IMG/VR virus record: IMGVR_UViG_2660238128_000002
From: a virus
Lineage: Duplodnaviria; Heunggongvirae; Uroviricota; Caudoviricetes
Direction: 5' to 3' (one strand)
DNA length: 14,285 nucleotides
Part shown: one piece after another, positions 1 to 14,285 of the stretch
Numbering within the stretch: position 1 is the first letter of the stretch
Layout: the number at the start of each line of letters is the position of its first letter
The notes under the pieces: model-generated
Databases searched by the model: none
What the model was told of the DNA's origin: nothing
Seen by the model: the letters and a program-made list of their open reading frames with translations, nothing else
Made by a program: the position numbers and the translations under genes

Positions 1-1083
1 ATGTCGTCTAATAATCGACTCCATTATCTTGATGGTATTCGTGGCTGGGCCGCAACTATTGTTGTCTTCGGGCACACCATGGGGGGCGTGATTGCAATTG
101 ACGCACCTAATTTTGTAAATCATCAATGGATGAGCTTTTTTACAAATGCTCATCTTGCTGTTTTGGTATTTTTTGTTTTATCAGGCTACGTCCTGAGCGT
201 TAGCCAAATCTACTCATCAAAACGTAATACTGCGGTATCCACCGTTGCAAGATTATTCAGATTGGCTCTTCCGATTCTGTTCGTAAGCCTTGTCGCATAT
301 ATCATGATGAGGTTAAACCTATTTTTCAATGTTCAAGCCGCTACTAATGACATATCGAAATCGTGGTTAGGGACATTTTTCAGGTTTGAGCCGTCACTAC
401 CTGGTGTATTTTCCTTTTCATTTTTCGATGTATTTTTCGCTTATGATACTCCGACATCATACAACTCTTCATTATGGACCATGCCTATAGAAATGGCTGG
501 GTCAATTCTAATTTATTCATACATAGCTATATTCAGAACTGAAAAATTCAACTGGATAATTTCTTCCATTTTAATAGTTTATTTCTATTTTTATAGCCCA
601 TTCATGTTCTGCTTTATGGTTGGGTATGTTCTGGCTGAACTGAAAAAAATTAACAACCTATACCTGAGTGGTAGAAATGAAATACCGTTGATATTTATTT
701 TCTTTGCCATGATCTATCTGGATACATACCATAGGCCGGTTGATGAGATTATTCAGGCGCTTGAGGCGGTAGTATTTGTTGTTGTAATATCTTACAGCAA
801 AACTTTATCATCGCTGTTCTCATCAAGAGCATCAAGATTTATGGGCAGGATTTCGTTTTCTCTATATCTAGTTCAGATACTGGTTATTTGCTCATGGTCT
901 TCGTACATGAAGATTTTACTATCAAACTCTGGTATTAATATAAATATTGCAGCCTCAATAAACCTCATATCATCCATGGCTTTGTGCATATTAACAGCAA
1001 GAGCCATGACTCCTATTGATGAATTTAGTGTTAAACACTCCAAAACCATTGCTTTTAAATTATTAAATTTATGCTCTAGGTAA
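1..1083 (+). CDS. Integral-membrane acyltransferase, acyltransferase-3 family (O-antigen O-acetyltransferase-like; lysogenic-conversion candidate)
   Basis: 360-aa ORF. N-terminal motif LDGIRGWAA...VVFGH matches the conserved N-terminal Arg/His region of acyltransferase-3 (Oac/OafA-type) enzymes. Protein is very hydrophobic, consistent with a multi-pass membrane protein. Gene is AT-rich relative to the tail genes and convergent to the tail fiber gene. Family assignment from memory of the motif, not a search. Confidence 0.7.
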   Translation: MSSNNRLHYLDGIRGWAATIVVFGHTMGGVIAIDAPNFVNHQWMSFFTNAHLAVLVFFVLSGYVLSVSQIYSSKRNTAVSTVARLFRLALPILFVSLVAYIMMRLNLFFNVQAATNDISKSWLGTFFRFEPSLPGVFSFSFFDVFFAYDTPTSYNSSLWTMPIEMAGSILIYSYIAIFRTEKFNWIISSILIVYFYFYSPFMFCFMVGYVLAELKKINNLYLSGRNEIPLIFIFFAMIYLDTYHRPVDEIIQALEAVVFVVVISYSKTLSSLFSSRASRFMGRISFSLYLVQILVICSWSSYMKILLSNSGININIAASINLISSMALCILTARAMTPIDEFSVKHSKTIAFKLLNLCSR

Positions 1084-1266
1084 CCAAGTCGTCAAAATGC
1101 ACTTTAAGCCCCATAAGGGGCTTTCCATTCGCTCAGGTCTATCGAATCCACCATCCTGGCATACTAAAATGTTAATCGATATGCCATCAATCACTTCTTT
1201 CTCTTCATCCATTTCTGCCACGTAAATTGCGGCAATCGTATGGACGCTTTTCCTCAATTGGTTCAT
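1069..1266 (-). CDS. Hypothetical small protein (65 aa), doubtful
   Basis: ORF from the six-frame track. It overlaps the 3' end of the acyltransferase gene and the putative terminator hairpin. No recognisable motif. May be spurious or a gene remnant. Confidence 0.15.
   Translation of the reverse strand: MNQLRKSVHTIAAIYVAEMDEEKEVIDGISINILVCQDGGFDRPERMESPLWGLKCILTTWLPRA
1107..1126 (+). terminator. Possible weak intrinsic terminator after the acyltransferase gene
   Basis: Hairpin AGCCCC-ATAA-GGGGCT (6-bp GC-rich stem) about 25 nt after the stop codon, followed by a short, imperfect T-tract (TTTCCATT). Confidence 0.3.
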
Positions 1267-1573
1267 TATTTTTCCGATATGTCACACCCCATATTTAGAT
1301 TTCAACGTTATTAGATCACTCGCAAACTGTTCCTTCAGCATTGGATATTTAGCTTGCTAATGCTGCATGATTGCTTCCATCAGTTAAAGATGCAGAACTA
1401 AAAGCTAACGTAAGAAATGAAACATTCTCTTGATATGCTTTACTTAAGCTTTCCAGCTCTTTTTTGTATAGATAAGCATTTATTGTTGATTCTGAAATAA
1501 TTTTATACTCCAGCTACTGACAGAATTTACTATTTGATGAATTGTGTTTATCTCCTAATGAGTGCTTAACATT

Positions 1574-1687
1574 TTAATTCATTACAATTTCCTTATATTC
1601 AAGGTATTTTTCAAGATCTTGCTCACAACGGAATATTGATACTAATTGACTTTCATCATTAGTTGAAAGTTGGATGTATAGATTCAT
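1574..1687 (-). CDS. Small ORF (37 aa) immediately downstream of the tail fiber gene; possible remnant or mini tail-fiber chaperone
   Basis: ATG at 1687 lies 10 nt after the tail fiber stop and is preceded by AAGGA at 6-nt spacing. Translation: MNLYIQLSTNDESQLVSIFRCEQDLEKYLEYKEIVMN. Not in the ORF track (below its length cutoff). Sits where a tail fiber assembly gene would be expected. Confidence 0.3.
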   Translation of the reverse strand: MNLYIQLSTNDESQLVSIFRCEQDLEKYLEYKEIVMN

Positions 1688-1696
1688 CAATAGTCC

Positions 1697-2851
1697 TTAA
1701 ATAGTATACCCACTTACACCAACAGTTAAGCTAGATACTGATGATGTTGTCCAAGTGAATGTATAATAAATTGTTTGAGGGTTCTGGATTAGAAGCTCAT
1801 AGTAAAAATCGACGCCAGTAGATCTACTTAAACCAGCATATGCCTGGAAATACCCTACATCCTGGGTATCAGAAGCAATTGAAGCAGCTGCATAACCATC
1901 ACCTTCCCCTGTGTTACAAAACACATAACCAGTACAGGTTGCTGCGTTTTTCGGGATCGCGTTTGTAAGAGAAATTGGAGTATACCCACCTGGGTTGCTA
2001 CTGGTTGACAGTACATCAACTCGCTGGGTAGCGAACTTTCTCCCTCTTTGGTACCCAATTTTTAACAGCGCCCCAGATGTTGTTCCCCACACCGATACCA
2101 AAGCGCTCGCCGTATATCCTGCTGGCATGTTTGCACCACCATATACCGTGGGAGCAATAATAGAAGTGACGTCCTGAGCAAGTAATGCCGAGGTATCTGT
2201 CGTCGGGTTATAAATCAGGTAAATTGCAACCCAACCACTGGCTGGCGCACTACCAGTATCCATGCCACCCGCCCCAGTCGTGGTGAGATTGATGGTTTTG
2301 TTGACCGAGCTTAAACGGTACTGCTTACCAGATAATGACTCACCAACAATGACTTGATCAGCAGTGAACGTTGCTGATGCCGACGCTATTGCCACGCTCA
2401 TTTTCTGGTTAACAGCCTGACCAACCACGCCGGTGAATGATTCTCGCATCTTGAGGTAATCACTTAGCGGCGACCACCCAGCTGAAGAAGTATTAGGGTC
2501 GTTTGTGTTGTTGTTGATAGTGCTGATATAAATCGTTGCGCCGTCATCACTGATGAGAACAGCTCCAAGAGGATACCCTCCAACCGCCGTTGAAAAATCT
2601 GAGTCAAAAGCATTAAGAGCGCCTGCGCTAGACCATCTGCAAAGGGAAGACAACTCATACAAGATTTGATTCATGTCCTGCCCTTTGGGAGGAAGGCCCC
2701 CGGCAGATTTCAAAATCATTGTTATTGGTGGGAATCCTAAATCGTAGGATGCTGTATTATCTCCAGCTGGAGTTGTCGGCAGAAGATCCTCTCTTTGACC
2801 ATTTACTCCAAAAGGTTTTGGTTGTTTTTTGGGTGAGTCAGAGCGATTCAT
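1697..2851 (-). CDS. Phage tail fiber protein
   Basis: 384-aa ORF, last gene of the baseplate operon, directly after the gp48-like gene (3-nt gap). Gly/Ser/Thr/Asn-rich with repetitive beta-rich character (e.g. TINLTTTGAGG, YTFTWTTSSVSSLTVGVSGYTI), typical of fiber proteins. Position matches Mu gene S. Confidence 0.75.
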   Translation of the reverse strand: MNRSDSPKKQPKPFGVNGQREDLLPTTPAGDNTASYDLGFPPITMILKSAGGLPPKGQDMNQILYELSSLCRWSSAGALNAFDSDFSTAVGGYPLGAVLISDDGATIYISTINNNTNDPNTSSAGWSPLSDYLKMRESFTGVVGQAVNQKMSVAIASASATFTADQVIVGESLSGKQYRLSSVNKTINLTTTGAGGMDTGSAPASGWVAIYLIYNPTTDTSALLAQDVTSIIAPTVYGGANMPAGYTASALVSVWGTTSGALLKIGYQRGRKFATQRVDVLSTSSNPGGYTPISLTNAIPKNAATCTGYVFCNTGEGDGYAAASIASDTQDVGYFQAYAGLSRSTGVDFYYELLIQNPQTIYYTFTWTTSSVSSLTVGVSGYTI

Positions 2852-7814: not shown

Positions 7815-8693
7815 TCAGTAGTTATGTACTGAAGGAGGTAATTCTTTATTCTTAAGTCTCATCCATGCGGAAAGATTCGTTGGTCCGTCTGGCTCATTGA
7901 TATCAACATCTCGTGTGTGATTGATTAAAACGTCTCTCGCTATATCGATAATACGGGAGAACTCATAACCGCAGTCATGACATCTGCCGGAATAGTTCGA
8001 TTGAATTTGTTTTAATGCCGGATACAGTTCGCGGAATAATGCCTGTGAACGGTTGGCATAATCCCATAACCATACAAGGCTGTTTGCTTCTTTTGCAGAA
8101 ATCTCGTTGGTTTTCTTCTCTTGTTTGCCGATGAACTCACCTTCAAGCACTACCCTGTGGATGTACTCTACGGCCAGCGGGATTTGTTCAATTGAAAGTT
8201 CATCAATGCTGTCAATACCAAAACGCTGATGAACCATATTGTATGCATCGTCATAGCGAAGTCCTTTCTTTCCTACCAGCATGTTTACTGCATCGCGTAG
8301 CGGTGTTCTTTCCTCAACAGTGGTTTTCTTTCCTTTTACATACTCGCCATGTTTGCGAATTGAAGGCAGAACTTCTGCTGTTACCCACTTGCGGAATTTG
8401 TGTGGGACTGAACCTTTATTGACTGCATCGCGGCAGCGCAGAACCAATGTATACATACCTGATTCGCTCACAATGCTTAGATTCTGCTCACCACCAAGGG
8501 TGTAACTTAAAGTTACTCCCTTTTCATCGTCATCAAGTGCAGTAAGCGCCTTGCGTGAGTTAGTCAAAGCTAAAGCATCACAAACATCTTTAGCTACAAA
8601 CCACGGCTCGCCGCACTTGTTAATGACGCGAATTTCACTGTCGCCAAATTTGAAGATGGTGAAATCGTTTTGTGCCTTTGCTATACTTTTCAT
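7815..8693 (-). CDS. Bro-N domain antirepressor (Ant-like)
   Basis: 292-aa ORF. The N-terminus carries the Bro-N signature ([10 protein letters not shown]...[16 protein letters not shown]...[19 protein letters not shown]). The C-terminal half is a separate region of unassigned fold. It is the second gene of an operon headed by a small ribbon-helix-helix gene, as in P22 arc-ant. Confidence 0.75.
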
Positions 8694-8768
8694 GTCAATA
8701 TTTCCCGATCAGATTTGTTGATGTAGAAGCCTCGCCAGTTCCCGCTGTCGGGGCTTCGTTATTTTTAG
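8679..8768 (+). ncRNA. Candidate Sar-like cis-antisense small RNA covering the antirepressor ribosome-binding site
   Basis: Plus-strand extended -10 element TGcTATACT (8679-8687) inside the first codons of the antirepressor gene. About 40 nt further on the plus strand is a hairpin GAAGCCTCG...CGGGGCTTC (8726-8757, 9 bp including one G-U pair) followed by GTTATTTTT. The predicted ~75-nt transcript is antisense to the antirepressor RBS and the intercistronic region. The terminator is oriented for the plus strand only. Confidence 0.4.
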
Positions 8769-8926
8769 AGAGCATTCCGCATTTTCTCCCGGTACTTCAA
8801 CCACCAAGCAAGTCCCTGAACCAACACTGAGTTTTCTGACATCCCCTCTTCCTTGGCGATGCGTTTCACCTCCTCCTTAAAACGGTACGGATACCGAAGA
8901 GTTGTCTTCACTTCATTCTTTTCCAT
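8765..8926 (-). CDS. Arc-like ribbon-helix-helix transcriptional repressor (53 aa)
   Basis: ORF absent from the supplied track (below its cutoff). ATG at 8926 is preceded by GGAGTG with an in-frame stop immediately upstream. Translation: MEKNEVKTTLRYPYRFKEEVKRIAKEEGMSENSVLVQGLAWWLKYREKMRNAL. Shows the ribbon-helix-helix pattern (beta-strand TTLRYP, helix A, turn, helix B). Same length as P22 Arc and directly upstream of the antirepressor. Confidence 0.65.
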   Translation of the reverse strand: MEKNEVKTTLRYPYRFKEEVKRIAKEEGMSENSVLVQGLAWWLKYREKMRNAL

Positions 8927-9027
8927 TGATCACTCCTTTTACGTAATGGCATTATGCCTTGAAAGCAATATGCTATCATTGAATATAAATAGCAATATGC
9001 CATCATTGTTTTTTTTGAGGTGATGTT
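8927..9027. promoter_or_regulatory. Divergent promoter/operator region between the Arc-like and Mnt-like genes
   Basis: 100-bp AT-rich intergenic region. Two 18-bp direct repeats, AGCAATATGCTATCATTG (8964-8981) and AGCAATATGCCATCATTG (8991-9008), 17/18 identical, 27 bp apart. Perfect palindrome GGCAT-T-ATGCC at 8948-8958. Plus-strand -35-like TTGAAA (8959-8964) with a TATAAA -10-like element (8984-8989). Minus-strand CATAAT -10-like element within the palindrome. Confidence 0.5.
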
Positions 9028-9348
9028 ATGGCTGAAAAGCAGGTTAAAGATTACGAAAAGTTTGTTGTGCGTTTCCCTGACGGGATGAGGGACGCGATTG
9101 CGGAGAGAGCCAAACGAAACGGGCGCTCTATGAACTCAGAGATTGTGCAGATACTGGAAGATGCCTTGAATGCAGAAAATACTCTTGGGGAAATAGCAGA
9201 CAAAATCAACAGCGTCTCGGTTCCGTTAAATGTTGATGCGCTAGTTCAACTTCAAGCCCAAGTGATCGCCATGCAAAAAGAAATACAGGAAAAGTTCAGA
9301 GAGCAGAACGAAAAGTTGAGAGAACTGCTAAACAAAAAACCCACCTGA
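9028..9348 (+). CDS. Mnt-like (Arc/Mnt family) ribbon-helix-helix repressor with C-terminal coiled coil
   Basis: 106-aa ORF with RBS GAGG. N-terminal FVVRFPDGMRDAIAERAKRNGRSMNSEIVQILEDAL closely resembles the Mnt/Arc DNA-binding motif as I recall it (...NGRSMNSE...DAL). The C-terminal half is heptad-like and charged (oligomerisation). Divergently transcribed from the Arc-like/antirepressor operon. Confidence 0.75.
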   Translation: MAEKQVKDYEKFVVRFPDGMRDAIAERAKRNGRSMNSEIVQILEDALNAENTLGEIADKINSVSVPLNVDALVQLQAQVIAMQKEIQEKFREQNEKLRELLNKKPT

Positions 9349-9365
9349 CGGTGGGTTTTCATTTT
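9332..9365. terminator. Bidirectional intrinsic terminator
   Basis: Hairpin AACCCACC-TGAC-GGTGGGTT (8-bp stem), flanked by an A-run upstream and a T-run downstream, so it is followed by U-tracts on either strand. The Mnt-like stop codon TGA lies in the loop. The hairpin is about 50 nt downstream of the tape measure stop on the minus strand. Confidence 0.7.
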
Positions 9366-9416: not shown

Positions 9417-11231
9417 CTAAGGCATTGCACTGGAAAATGCCGCGTTTGTTGACGCCCGGCTAACTTGCTGATTGACGCTTCTGGTAAGAGCATCAACTGT
9501 TGTCGGGTTACTGTTAACAACTACCGTGCCAATAGTTGTACTGCTGCTACGGCTGTTGTCAATTTTTGATGTTGTCTGGCTTGGTGTTGAGGCGATGCGT
9601 TGCTGCTGCTGATAGTAAGCCAGCGTCTCGTTTTCTTTTGCATTAAGAGCGGCGCGAATCTTTGGTACATATTCTCGCGTTTCTTTCGGCAGGGTGTTCC
9701 AGTATTTGGATGATGGTGAATCAAACCCGGTACTGGATATATATTTTAACTTTTTGTCTACATTACCCATCCCCCAGTTGTAAGCCATCAGCGCATGGTT
9801 AACATTGCCTTTATAGTGCTTTAGCAAATCCCTCATGAACCTTTCAGCAGCAGCGCGAGATTTCACCTCATCAAGGCGCTCATCAATCCCATCCCCGACC
9901 TTTAACCCGTACGCTATGGCAGTATCCTTCATGAACTGATACGGACCAACAGCACCTTTCGGACTATAAAGTTTTTTACCACCACTCGATTCCACCTCAC
10001 GAATGGCGTCAAGGAGAGAATCCATGCTTACTGGCTTTACTCCGTCAGGGAGAGGGATATCTGGCTGAATGTTATTGCCATAAATCTCATCTCCTCTACG
10101 CCCAAAATCAGTATCAAAACCCATGCTGCGCATGGTATCTCCAAGTTCACGTTTAGAGTAATCAAACGATCCTTTAGCTGCCCCCTCAATGTTTTCCCTG
10201 TCATTGTAGAGATACAAACCATATGCTATTAACCCTGCTAACCATGGAGGAAGGGCGCCGCCTGTAAGTTTGCTTCCTACATATGCTGCTGCCAATAGTT
10301 TCAGAGCCTCTTCCGCACCACCAACTGCCTTTGTGAATTGCTTCGTCATATTCCCGGCGTCATTGAAAAAGCCAATGATGTCGCCATGATGTTTCTCAAT
10401 CCAGGAACCAAAAGCCTTCATCCCGTCAATAACGTCTGGAGCGAATGCCATGGCTAAATTTTGCTTTAATCGGGAAAACTCTGAATCAAGTTGCCCAAGG
10501 GTGGCAGCAACCTTCTCCTGCTCTTTTACCTGCTGTGCTGTAATACGGGATTTCTTTGTTTCTGAATCGACAAGCTGCTTAAGTTCCCCTGATTTTATTT
10601 TAGCGGCATCTGTCGGATCGAACCCTGCGGCAGCCATCACCTGCATCAGGTTTTCTTGAGAATGAGTCTTGCCATAGCGAGAAAACTCAGCAAGAGCCTT
10701 GTTTGGGTCGCCGAGCTTATTGATATCTAATCCGGTACGAGCTCCAAGAATCAGCAAATTTTGGGCAGCGCCAGTAAGCCCTCCCATAACAGTCGGATCG
10801 GCAATATTTGCCAAAGCCATTCTGGCATTCCCAGAAGATGAAATGAACGAGTCACCGTTAAGACCAGCCTGGCGAAATCCCCGCTGAACACCAAACATCT
10901 TATTAACATCAGAGCCGAAAAACTTGGCCTGTTGGCTGGCCCTCACAATTTCGTTGGCAGTAGATGTAAAAAGTTGCTTGACTCCATACAACCCTGCGCC
11001 AATTCCCAAAAATCCAGCGGCTGCTGTTGTCACGTTGCGGAAAGCTGAAACAGCGGTTTTACCGAACCTCTCCGTTTCCTGCCGCTGTTTTTCAAGTTCC
11101 TTTAGCCTTTCCTTCTCAGCCCTAGAAAGATCTTTGTTTAATTTACTAACTTCATCTTTTACTTTCCGTTTTCCATTCAGGAATTCATCGGCCTTAATTG
11201 TGACCTTGTAGGCCAACTCATTGATAATCAT
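9417..11231 (-). CDS. Tail tape measure protein with C-terminal soluble lytic transglycosylase (SLT) domain
   Basis: 604-aa ORF after the chaperone pair. N-terminal coiled-coil/charged region (EKERLKELEKQRQETERFGK) and Gly/Ala-rich hydrophobic segments. The C-terminal part has the SLT-type motif (EVESSGG...GAVGPYQFMKDTA...AYNWGMGNV, with the catalytic Glu in the E-S context). Confidence 0.75.
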   Translation of the reverse strand: MIINELAYKVTIKADEFLNGKRKVKDEVSKLNKDLSRAEKERLKELEKQRQETERFGKTAVSAFRNVTTAAAGFLGIGAGLYGVKQLFTSTANEIVRASQQAKFFGSDVNKMFGVQRGFRQAGLNGDSFISSSGNARMALANIADPTVMGGLTGAAQNLLILGARTGLDINKLGDPNKALAEFSRYGKTHSQENLMQVMAAAGFDPTDAAKIKSGELKQLVDSETKKSRITAQQVKEQEKVAATLGQLDSEFSRLKQNLAMAFAPDVIDGMKAFGSWIEKHHGDIIGFFNDAGNMTKQFTKAVGGAEEALKLLAAAYVGSKLTGGALPPWLAGLIAYGLYLYNDRENIEGAAKGSFDYSKRELGDTMRSMGFDTDFGRRGDEIYGNNIQPDIPLPDGVKPVSMDSLLDAIREVESSGGKKLYSPKGAVGPYQFMKDTAIAYGLKVGDGIDERLDEVKSRAAAERFMRDLLKHYKGNVNHALMAYNWGMGNVDKKLKYISSTGFDSPSSKYWNTLPKETREYVPKIRAALNAKENETLAYYQQQQRIASTPSQTTSKIDNSRSSSTTIGTVVVNSNPTTVDALTRSVNQQVSRASTNAAFSSAMP

Positions 11232-11446
11232 CGCTGCTCCTGATGTTTATTCCAGACCCGCTTGTTAAATGATTCCACCGAGATAATTTCCAGCAGGTTA
11301 TACATATCACGAACAGATAACCTTTCCTGCAAATCGGTATAAGTGGCTTTTCCTGAACAGATAATGGCGTTCATTGATGGTGTGACGTTTACGGGGATAA
11401 CGAGTTTTGCCGGAAGAGTCTCCTCTTCCATGAACGGGTACTTCAC
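11228..11446 (-). CDS. Tail assembly chaperone, T-like frame (probably expressed as a G-T fusion by -1 frameshift)
   Basis: 72-aa ORF (GTG start in the track) in the -1 frame relative to the upstream 135-aa gene. Its frame is open from 11467, and its stop overlaps the tape measure start. Position between tube and tape measure matches the conserved G/GT chaperone pair. Confidence 0.55.
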   Translation of the reverse strand: MKYPFMEEETLPAKLVIPVNVTPSMNAIICSGKATYTDLQERLSVRDMYNLLEIISVESFNKRVWNKHQEQR

Positions 11447-11850
11447 TCTCCGGCGATCGTTAAAAAATCAAAATTGACTTTAAATACCTTGTCCATTACC
11501 TGACGAATGGTTGATACCTCTTCAAAGTCGACAGGCTTCACGGTTCGCACCTGTCTGCTGCCTTCGTGTGTAATCACAATTTGCACAGTTGACATCAGGC
11601 GATCACGAAGTTTTCTGGCAACTTCCGGCGATGCGGCAGAAAGAACATTCAGACCAAGGGTGGCAAGGCCAGCGCACCCCATGGCAATCACATCAGCAGG
11701 GATACCAGAGAATCCCGATTCCCCCATGGAGCGGAATAAATCCTGTGCCAGTTCGTCGGCATCCCATGCCGACATCTCTATGATAATGAACTCCTTCCCA
11801 TTGTCGCGATTATCGTCTTCCACGATAAAGGGGATTTCTTTACGTGCCAT
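11443..11850 (-). CDS. Tail assembly chaperone, G-like
   Basis: 135-aa acidic protein. Start overlaps the tube gene stop (TGATG). Lies between the tube and tape measure genes. Contains the slippery heptamer near its 3' end. Confidence 0.6.
   Translation of the reverse strand: MARKEIPFIVEDDNRDNGKEFIIIEMSAWDADELAQDLFRSMGESGFSGIPADVIAMGCAGLATLGLNVLSAASPEVARKLRDRLMSTVQIVITHEGSRQVRTVKPVDFEEVSTIRQVMDKVFKVNFDFLTIAGE
11461..11467 (-). other. Candidate -1 programmed ribosomal frameshift slippery heptamer T_TTT_TTA
   Basis: In the zero frame of the 135-aa gene the sequence reads GAT TTT TTA (D F L), giving the X_XXY_YYZ heptamer U_UUU_UUA eight codons before the stop. The -1 frame is open from exactly this point into the 72-aa ORF. 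Confidence 0.5.
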
Positions 11851-12284
11851 CAGATAGTGCTCCGTGTTACAGACTCAAAGTGAAATACTGCCGGGCGTGG
11901 TTGCAGTACGCGCCGACCCGGAGGGGTTGGAGTCCATGTATAAAGAACCCCGTTCACAAAATTCCACTTCGCGCCGAGAGCCGGAACTGTAAGCACCGCA
12001 TTACACTGAAACGCTGAAATTGCAGTTCTCTCCGCTGCATACCAGTCATCAATCAGCGAGCCAGCATTGGATGTGGGCATCAGGTTGATGGTGAACTCTG
12101 TCGGGTTAAAGATAAAACCAGCATGGTATTTACCGTCCGCTGACATCATGTCTTCTTTGTTCTGTAGTGCGCCAGTTTCAAACATGTTATCAGCTGCGTA
12201 GTCGTCAACATCAAAACCGCCAGGGTAGTAAGCGGGTACGACGATTCGCAGCTTACTGTTTGCCGAGGTGATATCTATAGGCAT
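11850..12284 (-). CDS. Tail tube protein
   Basis: 144-aa ORF immediately downstream of the sheath gene with RBS AAGGGA. Size and position match a contractile-tail tube protein (Mu gpM position). Confidence 0.65.
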   Translation of the reverse strand: MPIDITSANSKLRIVVPAYYPGGFDVDDYAADNMFETGALQNKEDMMSADGKYHAGFIFNPTEFTINLMPTSNAGSLIDDWYAAERTAISAFQCNAVLTVPALGAKWNFVNGVLYTWTPTPPGRRVLQPRPAVFHFESVTRSTI

Positions 12285-12295
12285 GATTTATTCCC

Positions 12296-13786
12296 TTATA
12301 AAATCGCGGTTGAGGACATTGTGATGGACTGGATTAACTGACCATCGACATAATAAAAAATGACACCTTTCAGGTCGCGCTCAATGCGTGCAGAGCCTGA
12401 CTGTGTCGGGATGTACAGGAACCAGCCCTGTGAATACAGCGTCGATGAGATATCTTTTCCAACTGTGTTATTCACAATTCTGGTTTGCGCATTATCAAGT
12501 TTCACGCCACGCTGAATAGCCCCGAAATTGAGAGCCTGTTCAGCAACATCAATAACAGCAGCAGAAACTGCGCCGTATCCTGTCTCATTGAACGGGTAAG
12601 ACTGGTTATTGGTGAACAGGTTGGCAAAAGCACTAACCAGATTGGCATTAATCCATACCTGATTAATAAAACTGTCCAGCCATACAAACTTGCCAGTAAT
12701 GGCGCCATCAGATGCGTACTGCGCCATTGTTTTGTTCAGGCTGTATGAGCCGTAGAAGTTGTAACCGTTTGACTTCAGTGCCTGAGCGGTCGCCAGATCG
12801 CTTACGTTGGGTGCTAACCCTGAAAATCCACGGAACTTGAACGAGATACGCCCATTGGTGCGTGCAAAATCCACGGATGCAGCATATGCCAGTGCTGTAA
12901 CGCTATACAGGTATGTTCCGTACACCGGAAAAATGTTCTCGTAGCCATTTGCCACAACCACTTTCTGCACAAAGCAATTGGCATTATTGGCTACCGTTCC
13001 TGCTGAAGTGGTGTCGTGAACAACATATCCAAACCGGTTTTTACTGCTGCTTGCCCATGCGCACAATTCTGTTTTCTGGTCATCGGCCAGTTCGACCAGC
13101 GAGTTAAACAGGATCCAGTTCTGGTTGACGTTGATGATGTTGTTCATCGTGTCTGTCAGAGTTACCGCATCAGAACCCGGTGATACAATCGCTGCGGAAT
13201 CCTGCGTCAGTAATAACCCGGCAGCCAGAGCGCCAGCAGAGGCATAAGACACTTCACTCTCTGCGCCAGTAGTGGCAGAGCGAATGATGAATCGGTTAGC
13301 GATTGGCAACCATTCAACCACCACCTTGCTTGCACCAATTCCAACCTGCAACTTGGACGCAATGTCACTAAAACTTGTGGCTGTGGACAAATCAATTGAT
13401 GTGCTGGTAGTCGACTCACCGTCAATGGAAAGGGTGATTGTTCCTGCTGGAATCGCTTTCAGTGTTGCCAGGGCAACACCTTTCAGGTTGCCGGACAGAA
13501 GATACCCAGCCACTGGTGAAGTAACAATACGATACATCAGCAGTTCACCAGGAATAACGGATGAATTTTCGTATCCGTTAAAATACTGTTGTGCTGCGAG
13601 GAATTCTTTCGATTCACTCCCCATCAAAGCTGATACATCAGATGAGGAGTAATAAGATTGTACCGCGCCAACCGGGATAAGCTCGTTATCGGTCAACATC
13701 AGGCCGTTAGCATCAACCGCAGAACCGGCAGGCGTAACGACATTGGGCGTGATATTAAAATCTACAGATAAAGGGATTGTGCTCAT
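12296..13786 (-). CDS. Tail sheath protein
   Basis: 496-aa ORF, first large gene of the tail operon and followed by the tube gene. Size is almost identical to the Mu sheath protein gpL (495 aa). Call is by size and synteny; resemblance to a DUF3383-type sheath is my recollection only. Confidence 0.7.
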   Translation of the reverse strand: MSTIPLSVDFNITPNVVTPAGSAVDANGLMLTDNELIPVGAVQSYYSSSDVSALMGSESKEFLAAQQYFNGYENSSVIPGELLMYRIVTSPVAGYLLSGNLKGVALATLKAIPAGTITLSIDGESTTSTSIDLSTATSFSDIASKLQVGIGASKVVVEWLPIANRFIIRSATTGAESEVSYASAGALAAGLLLTQDSAAIVSPGSDAVTLTDTMNNIINVNQNWILFNSLVELADDQKTELCAWASSSKNRFGYVVHDTTSAGTVANNANCFVQKVVVANGYENIFPVYGTYLYSVTALAYAASVDFARTNGRISFKFRGFSGLAPNVSDLATAQALKSNGYNFYGSYSLNKTMAQYASDGAITGKFVWLDSFINQVWINANLVSAFANLFTNNQSYPFNETGYGAVSAAVIDVAEQALNFGAIQRGVKLDNAQTRIVNNTVGKDISSTLYSQGWFLYIPTQSGSARIERDLKGVIFYYVDGQLIQSITMSSTAIL

Positions 13787-13988
13787 GGGCGGTTATCCAC
13801 CTGTTCAGTTGAAATTTCTGCTTTGTCGAAATAGTCCTGCTGGAACGACACGGTGATGTGTGCTTGCAGGGAAAGAGTTAACGTGTAACGCTCCTGCCAC
13901 TGACTCTCGGCGTTGATCATCGGCGCCTGAATGGCAGGAGATGAGTAAAGCGGTGCAAGCCGTGCATCAATAGCCTTGATGATGTCGT
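13783..13988 (-). pseudogene. 5'-truncated phage gene upstream of the sheath gene, interrupted by IS insertion
   Basis: The 84-aa track ORF (13783..14037) draws its first ~16 codons from IS terminal sequence. Native coding sequence begins at about 13988, so the original start and promoter are missing. Its stop overlaps the sheath start. Confidence 0.45.
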
Positions 13989-14285
13989 TGAAGTGGTTTA
14001 CTGAATTTGGCCACCTGAACAGAGGTGATATGCTCACCTCAGAACAACACAGGTGCCATAATGAAAAAAAGAAATTTCAGCGCAGAGTTTAAACGCGAAT
14101 CCGCTCAACTGGTCGTTGACCAGAATTACACCGTGGCAGATGCAGCCAGCGCTATGGATGTCGGCCTTTCCACAATGACGCGATGGGTGAAACAATTACG
14201 TGATGAGCGGCAGGGAAAAACACCAAAAGCCTCCCCCATTACCCCGGAACAAATTGAAATCCGTGAGCTCAGGAAAAAGCTACAA
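13989..14285 (+). mobile_element. IS3-family insertion sequence (IS911-like), left end; runs off the window
   Basis: Terminus begins TGAAGTGG... (IS3-family ends are TG...CA). OrfA starts about 72 nt inside the end. The OrfA protein matches IS911 OrfA as I recall it. Confidence 0.8.
14061..14285 (+). CDS. insN: IS911-like transposase OrfA (partial; continues beyond the window)
   Basis: Translation [75 protein letters not shown]: helix-turn-helix N-terminus followed by the start of the leucine-zipper region characteristic of IS3-family OrfA. Preceded by a purine-rich RBS region. Confidence 0.85.

Follow-up and report, generated by a model that had tools for sequence, protein, structure and literature searches.

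Very probable ISEc52 insertion in the neck/tail-terminator gene of a myovirus-type Escherichia coli prophage

The DNA analysed here, a stretch of 14,285 nt to which we refer as the window, ends inside an insertion sequence (IS) that adjoins the remnant of a neck/tail-terminator gene directly upstream of an intact tail sheath gene. From our point of view, this arrangement very probably reflects an ISEc52 insertion in codon 104 that split the terminator gene of an E. coli myovirus-type prophage, and the terminator gene is destroyed irrespective of whether the event was a simple insertion or a deletion. Disruption of prophage genes by IS elements is commonplace, and only the insertion site is new here, the IS being catalogued and the disrupted gene family described. 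The event is an ordinary one that matters little beyond annotation, for which the 84-codon open reading frame (ORF) at the junction represents a chimeric pseudogene fragment of the tail terminator and the window end represents ISEc52. It nevertheless offers a clean example of the first step of IS-driven prophage decay, in a prophage family that has been hit repeatedly and independently.

The insertion-sequence end

The IS tip, TGAAGTGG, begins exactly at position 13989, and the left terminal inverted repeat (IRL) opens precisely where the phage homology ends, the last homologous base being 13988. The initial annotation had placed an IS terminus at about this position and assigned it to the IS3 family as an IS911-like element, and both proposals held up. 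From 13989 to the window end at 14285 (plus strand), the DNA constitutes the left end of ISEc52, as all 297 nt are 100% identical to annotated copies in the best matches among the complete E. coli genomes (E = 3e-153), and PGAP labels these identical copies 'IS3-like element ISEc52 family transposase'. Thousands of match places exist for the segment across the complete E. coli genomes. Its identity to IS911A of K-12 MG1655 is 98.7%, and to copies that PGAP labels 'IS911 family' it is about 90%. Judged by sequence, the window end is an IS3-family, IS911-like element with ISEc52 as the nearest named element, and the match of junction and IS lies far beyond chance.

A complete ISEc52 copy of 1250 bp (L034:1501-2750) served as reference, with the first part of which (L034:1501-1797) positions 13989-14285 are collinear; the window hence displays the first 297 of the 1250 bp, and about 950 bp lie beyond its end. 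The IRL, TGAAGTGGTTTACTGAATTTGGCCACC (13989-14015, plus strand), is identical to that of the reference copy, where it pairs with the right end ...GGTGGCCAGTTTTTGTTGACCACTTCA (27 nt, 78% complementary). The right repeat itself is located outside the window. The imperfect terminal repeats of the IS3 family, 5'-TG ... CA-3', can accordingly be read at the left end in the window and at the right end in the reference copy.

The orfA gene starts with an ATG at 14061, which is 72 nt from the IS tip and in line with the distance of about 70 nt inside the left end that characterises IS3-family elements. Its first 75 codons (14061-14285, plus strand) encode the N-terminal part of a helix-turn-helix transposase protein and match PF01527 (HTH_Tnp_1, E = 1.9e-14) over profile positions 1-74 of 75. 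With codon 75 of orfA the window comes to its end, and orfB and the right repeat lie beyond. The full reference copy carries a slippery site, A AAA AAG, at IS position 324, and in another locus (L039) PGAP annotates the ISEc52 transposase with a programmed frameshift; Pfam rve domains were seen solely on other IS3-family transposases in the prophage relatives. With a left repeat and an orfA N-terminus identical to those of ISEc52, and with the TG...CA termini, the element itself is no different from what is known of ISEc52 and IS911, which belong to the IS3 group of the IS3 family.

The interrupted terminator gene and its junction

The relatives of this DNA are temperate prophages with lambda-like early genes, a Q-like antiterminator, lysis, terminase and head genes and, after these, a contractile tail module whose sheath and tube genes are of the E217 type, all on one strand. 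In the window, the order from the attachment end is acyltransferase (1-1083), fibre, baseplate, immI-like cassette, tape measure, tube and sheath. The sheath gene (12296-13786, minus strand; 496 aa; PF11863, E = 9e-107) is intact and represents the first complete gene downstream of the break. Its exact protein occurs in 370 blocks of the contig index, the cluster entry comprises 165 contigs, and the named cluster members are all E. coli.

Directly upstream of the sheath gene, intact relatives carry a gene of 516 nt that encodes a protein of 171 aa annotated as 'phage neck terminator protein', which matches PF23961 with 79 bits over profile positions 1-148 of 153. Most of the 120 listed homologues have 169-172 aa, and proteins of this length are spread widely across Enterobacterales, including E. 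coli, Salmonella, Citrobacter, Cronobacter, Edwardsiella, Yersinia and others. What the window retains of this gene (13783-13988, minus strand) is identical to the last 206 nt of the intact gene and consists of two nt of codon 104, codons 105-171 and the stop. The comparison with intact relatives that had been suggested for defining the missing 5' segment thus gives a precise answer: the window lacks the N-terminal 103 codons and keeps the last 67 (39% of the protein). Compared with homologues of 169-172 aa, these 67 codons confirm the view that the gene upstream of the sheath is truncated. The window ORF still scores 31.2 bits against PF23961 (cut-off 27), with only profile positions 99-148 of 153 covered, and has to be regarded as a fragment, not as a complete member of the family. 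Its position is that of the family, immediately before the sheath gene within the late operon, and the same gene order is found in all relatives.

An AlphaFold model of the 171-aa protein of an intact relative (pLDDT 76.8) was compared by Foldseek with known structures and matched the neck/terminator chains of PhiTE, E217, Pa193, XM1 and Pam3 (E = 2e-8 to 1e-7, TM 0.62-0.68). Weaker matches were obtained to lambda gpU (E about 2e-3), a distant likeness, and to the collar of the R2 pyocin. A terminator/neck fold is thus predicted on the model of the intact relative only. With the neck 'gateway'/terminator proteins of the five phages, the intact homologue shares this predicted fold and membership in PF23961, although its sequence is only 10-15% identical to those of the solved proteins, and a phmmer search of the PDB sequences with the terminator returned no match. 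The E217-type layout is shared as well, with the terminator immediately upstream of E217_gp31-type sheath and E217_Gp32-type tube genes. Terminator calls of 104 aa in three relatives (L002, L004, L011) were considered as independent mutations and rejected, as the DNA is identical to that of 171-aa genes and merely the choice of start codon differs.

The initial annotation had also stated that the ORF leading into the sheath gene takes its first codons from the IS, and the open frame does extend 49 nt into the antisense strand of the IS, which corresponds to 16 whole codons plus one base of the next. The resulting chimeric ORF is a purely mechanical one of 84 codons (13783-14037, minus strand), with a GTG start at 14037, in which IS antisense sequence is fused to the terminator remnant and whose stop overlaps the start codon of the sheath gene (ATGA, 13783-13786). 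Upon reading the sequence, no clear Shine-Dalgarno motif was seen before this GTG or before the internal ATG at 13920.

The prophage part left of 13989 is present in 20 of 5,426 complete E. coli genomes, and each of these alignments ends at 13988. Likewise, all fetched relatives that reach the junction align through 13988 and none further, with a few short contigs stopping earlier. In the base-by-base alignment with the copy of strain A41, identity runs through ...GATGATGTCGT, after which the window continues with TGAAGTGG... and the intact phage with AGCCATATCC.... The three phage bases that adjoin the IRL are CGT (13986-13988, no strand assigned), which would be expected in duplicate at the far end if the event was a simple insertion. 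The junction string itself is absent from the 5,426 complete E. coli genomes, the GTDB species representatives, IMG/VR and the JGI metagenome contigs, and no second sequence with the insertion or its far side was found in those collections. An exact-protein look-up of the 84-aa chimeric ORF returned no record, and those of the internal 45-aa ORF, the sheath and the acyltransferase led only to relatives that are intact or broken in other ways.

Short 'partial' hits (P0001, P0005, P0043) were evaluated as further IS junctions and rejected, as the native sequence continues and these are contig-end truncations. The draft contigs of many relatives (L013, L014, L016, L018, L021, P0001) end at about 13921-13975, that is within about 70 nt of the site on its sheath side. 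These ends do not reflect the IS and may partly result from the variable base 13954 between co-resident prophage variants. Also, the left flanks of several independent ISEc52 sites (L036-L040) are loosely similar to ...GATGATG..., as at 13970-13988, which is probably a selection effect since these were the extremes of about 8,400 BLAST places.

Simple insertion and the alternatives

IS3-family elements move by copy-out/paste-in transposition and usually generate a 3-bp target duplication. The present structure very probably arose by transposition of an ISEc52 copy into the neck/tail-terminator gene at codon 104, in a temperate E. coli prophage of the contractile-tail (myovirus) type whose early and lysis genes are lambda-like. 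The element is oriented with its left repeat and orfA pointing away from the tail genes. This split the terminator and left only its C-terminal 67 codons joined to a sheath-to-fibre module that is otherwise untouched. In the case of a simple insertion, the element would be flanked by CGT on both sides, and the far side is predicted to read ...CCACTTCA-CGT-AGCCATATCC..., or at other lengths ...TTGTTGACCACTTCA-CGT-AGCCATATCCACTGG... and ...GACCACTTCA-CGT-AGCCATATCC..., with the right repeat first, then CGT as the duplicate and then the remainder of the terminator gene. Such a simple insertion is the reading that we favour, at slightly better than even odds, over an IS-bounded deletion or rearrangement.

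The latter has a somewhat less than even chance and would mean that the IS forms the border of an IS-mediated deletion or inversion and that the window is a true tail-only remnant, the 103 N-terminal codons, the head, terminase and lysis genes and the late promoter no longer being adjacent. There is precedent for both outcomes within the family. The copies of this prophage in strain 720632 (IS600, L022/L024) and in CP170291.1 (IS3-family element, L032), both located at the lambda attachment site, carry IS-bounded internal deletions that extend from a tail gene to the ral/cIII region, and L026 and L029 have simple IS insertions in other prophage genes. The behaviour of ISEc52 itself points both ways, since 3-bp duplications (ttt, ctt, gtc and ctg) identify four of the five full copies examined as simple insertions, whereas the fifth (L037) has no duplication, joins cas3 to cas7 and is associated with a deletion. 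The near-identity of the window to intact relatives indicates a very recent event, which also speaks against a deletion. A homology search for the N-terminal chimera predicted for a simple insertion (155 aa, assuming the 3-bp duplication) found no such protein, which speaks for a deletion, but this is weak evidence, since the 84-aa ORF of the window is also absent from the records.

It could further be imagined that a contig end or a chimeric join has placed a repeated IS onto uninterrupted prophage DNA. The window does end inside the IS, as draft contigs often do, and no other sequence with the junction was found in the collections searched; yet the switch to the terminal repeat (TG...) occurs precisely at its first base, as in transposition, whereas a random mis-join would rarely fall there, and the 297 nt of IS follow without a mismatch, which makes an assembly artefact highly improbable. 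Still more remote, to a degree that we consider negligible, is the idea that the sheath gene is preceded by a naturally short gene and that nothing has been truncated. Beyond the existence of an open frame nothing argues for it, and a native start near 13988 is ruled out by homologues of 169-172 aa across genera, by a remnant that covers only PF23961 positions 99-148 of 153, and by a DNA identity with intact genes that runs to 13988 and then ends.

Under the simple insertion as well as under the deletion, the prophage has probably lost the ability to produce complete virions, as suggested by the family, the fold and the role of tail terminators. Proteins of this kind are required for tail completion and for joining of the tail to the head. 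Hence, without it the tail would remain uncapped and unjoined to the head and no infectious particles would be formed, which makes 'defective prophage' a reasonable description. One could speculate that the sheath-to-fibre module, being almost unchanged, is instead retained, along with the immI-like cassette and the acyltransferase gene, as a functional unit, in which case the locus might represent a nascent tailocin or a remnant kept for its conversion gene, and the 84-codon chimera might still be translated and thereby preserve the coupling into the sheath gene. We rate this scenario as very unlikely, partly because a tail that lacks its terminator is unlikely to be functional.

Transcription, prophage context and age

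The initial annotation had further concluded that the native 5' end and the promoter of the interrupted gene are gone. The 5' part of this statement applies to the 103 codons that are absent from the window; the promoter part does not, because in intact relatives the terminator gene shares 4 nt with the gene upstream and is embedded deep in a long late operon that the Q-like antiterminator precedes, so that no promoter of its own existed to be lost. Q-modified late transcription might pass through the IS, provided that the remaining prophage is present. In this case, transcription from the distant Q-dependent promoter would proceed in antisense direction through 1.25 kb of IS before the sheath gene is reached; should the element also mark a deletion, it would instead be lost completely.

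Entry of transcription into the tail operon from the IS end had also been proposed. The tail genes lie immediately next to the IRL and are oriented away from it. In IS911, the outward -35 element lies in the right repeat, whereas the -10 element of the IRL points inward toward the transposase (PMC9330008). The ISEc52 ends display the same layout as the IS911 junction promoter (PMC9330008) when they are abutted with a 3-bp spacer, with TTGACC of the right repeat located 17 bp from TTTACT of the left repeat. Because of this IS911-type layout, and since a consensus scan found no promoter-like site on either strand of 13600-14285 or of the full ISEc52 copy, transcription from the IS end is without support.

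The immI-like cassette, the second promoter source that had been suggested for the tail operon, is located downstream of the sheath, tube and tape-measure genes and could consequently feed only the baseplate and fibre genes. This P22 immI-like cassette (7815-9348) is inserted between the tape-measure and baseplate genes and consists of an Arc-domain repressor gene (9028-9348, plus strand, 106 aa), which is divergently oriented, an Arc-like gene (8765-8926, minus strand, 53 aa) and the antirepressor gene ant (7815-8693, minus strand, 292 aa, Bro-N and P22_AR_C). It is bracketed by terminator-like hairpins at 9336-9359 and, after ant, at 7797-7778 (minus strand). At the same place, relatives carry quite different cassettes with PIN, P63C, LexA-like or Panacea genes.

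Over 11,693 nt, the window differs from the intact relative L010 at two positions, both of them synonymous, and the retained 206 nt of the terminator gene are identical. With only these two synonymous changes, the tail genes are undecayed and, from the sequence, the insertion event looks recent. Other IS-decayed prophages of E. coli, such as CP4-6 of K-12, a cryptic prophage with IS911A inside, and the IS600-truncated copy of the present prophage in strain 720632, are comparable in that the structural region of a prophage is interrupted or truncated by an IS3-family element. In contrast to both, decay is at its first step here, with 11.7 kb of tail genes that carry two synonymous changes relative to intact relatives.

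Several other IS hits were observed across this prophage family. IS600 resides in the baseplate-plug gene in L022/L024 and an IS3-family element follows the baseplate J gene in L032, each with a deletion that reaches ral. Simple IS insertions are found in ant and in a gene for a 271-aa protein (L026, L029; L009 is the same prophage copy as L029), and another IS truncates terL, the independent hits being those of L022/L024, L032, L026, L029 and L005.

Among the isolated phages in INPHARED, none shares the tail module (9417-13988) at the DNA level, the best match having 70% identity over 16% of the window, and a search of Rfam with the window returned no match. The closest sheath proteins are those of the Edwardsiella phages Edno5 and GF-2 (73-75% aa identity) and of Vibrio phage IKEMa6-1 (66%).

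At the attachment-site end of the window, the gene at 1-1083 (plus strand) encodes an Acyl_transf_3 protein (PF01757, E = 1e-22) that may be a conversion gene of the O-antigen acyltransferase type. Relatives that possess the acyltransferase gene are integrated at the lambda attachment site between ybhB and ybhC, and the copy of strain A41 is integrated at the tRNA-Arg gene that adjoins intS. Window positions 1-1700 occur in one of the 5,426 complete E. coli genomes, that of strain 720632, where they lie next to ybhB at the lambda attachment site, and the GC content is 33-41% in positions 1-2000 compared with about 45% elsewhere.
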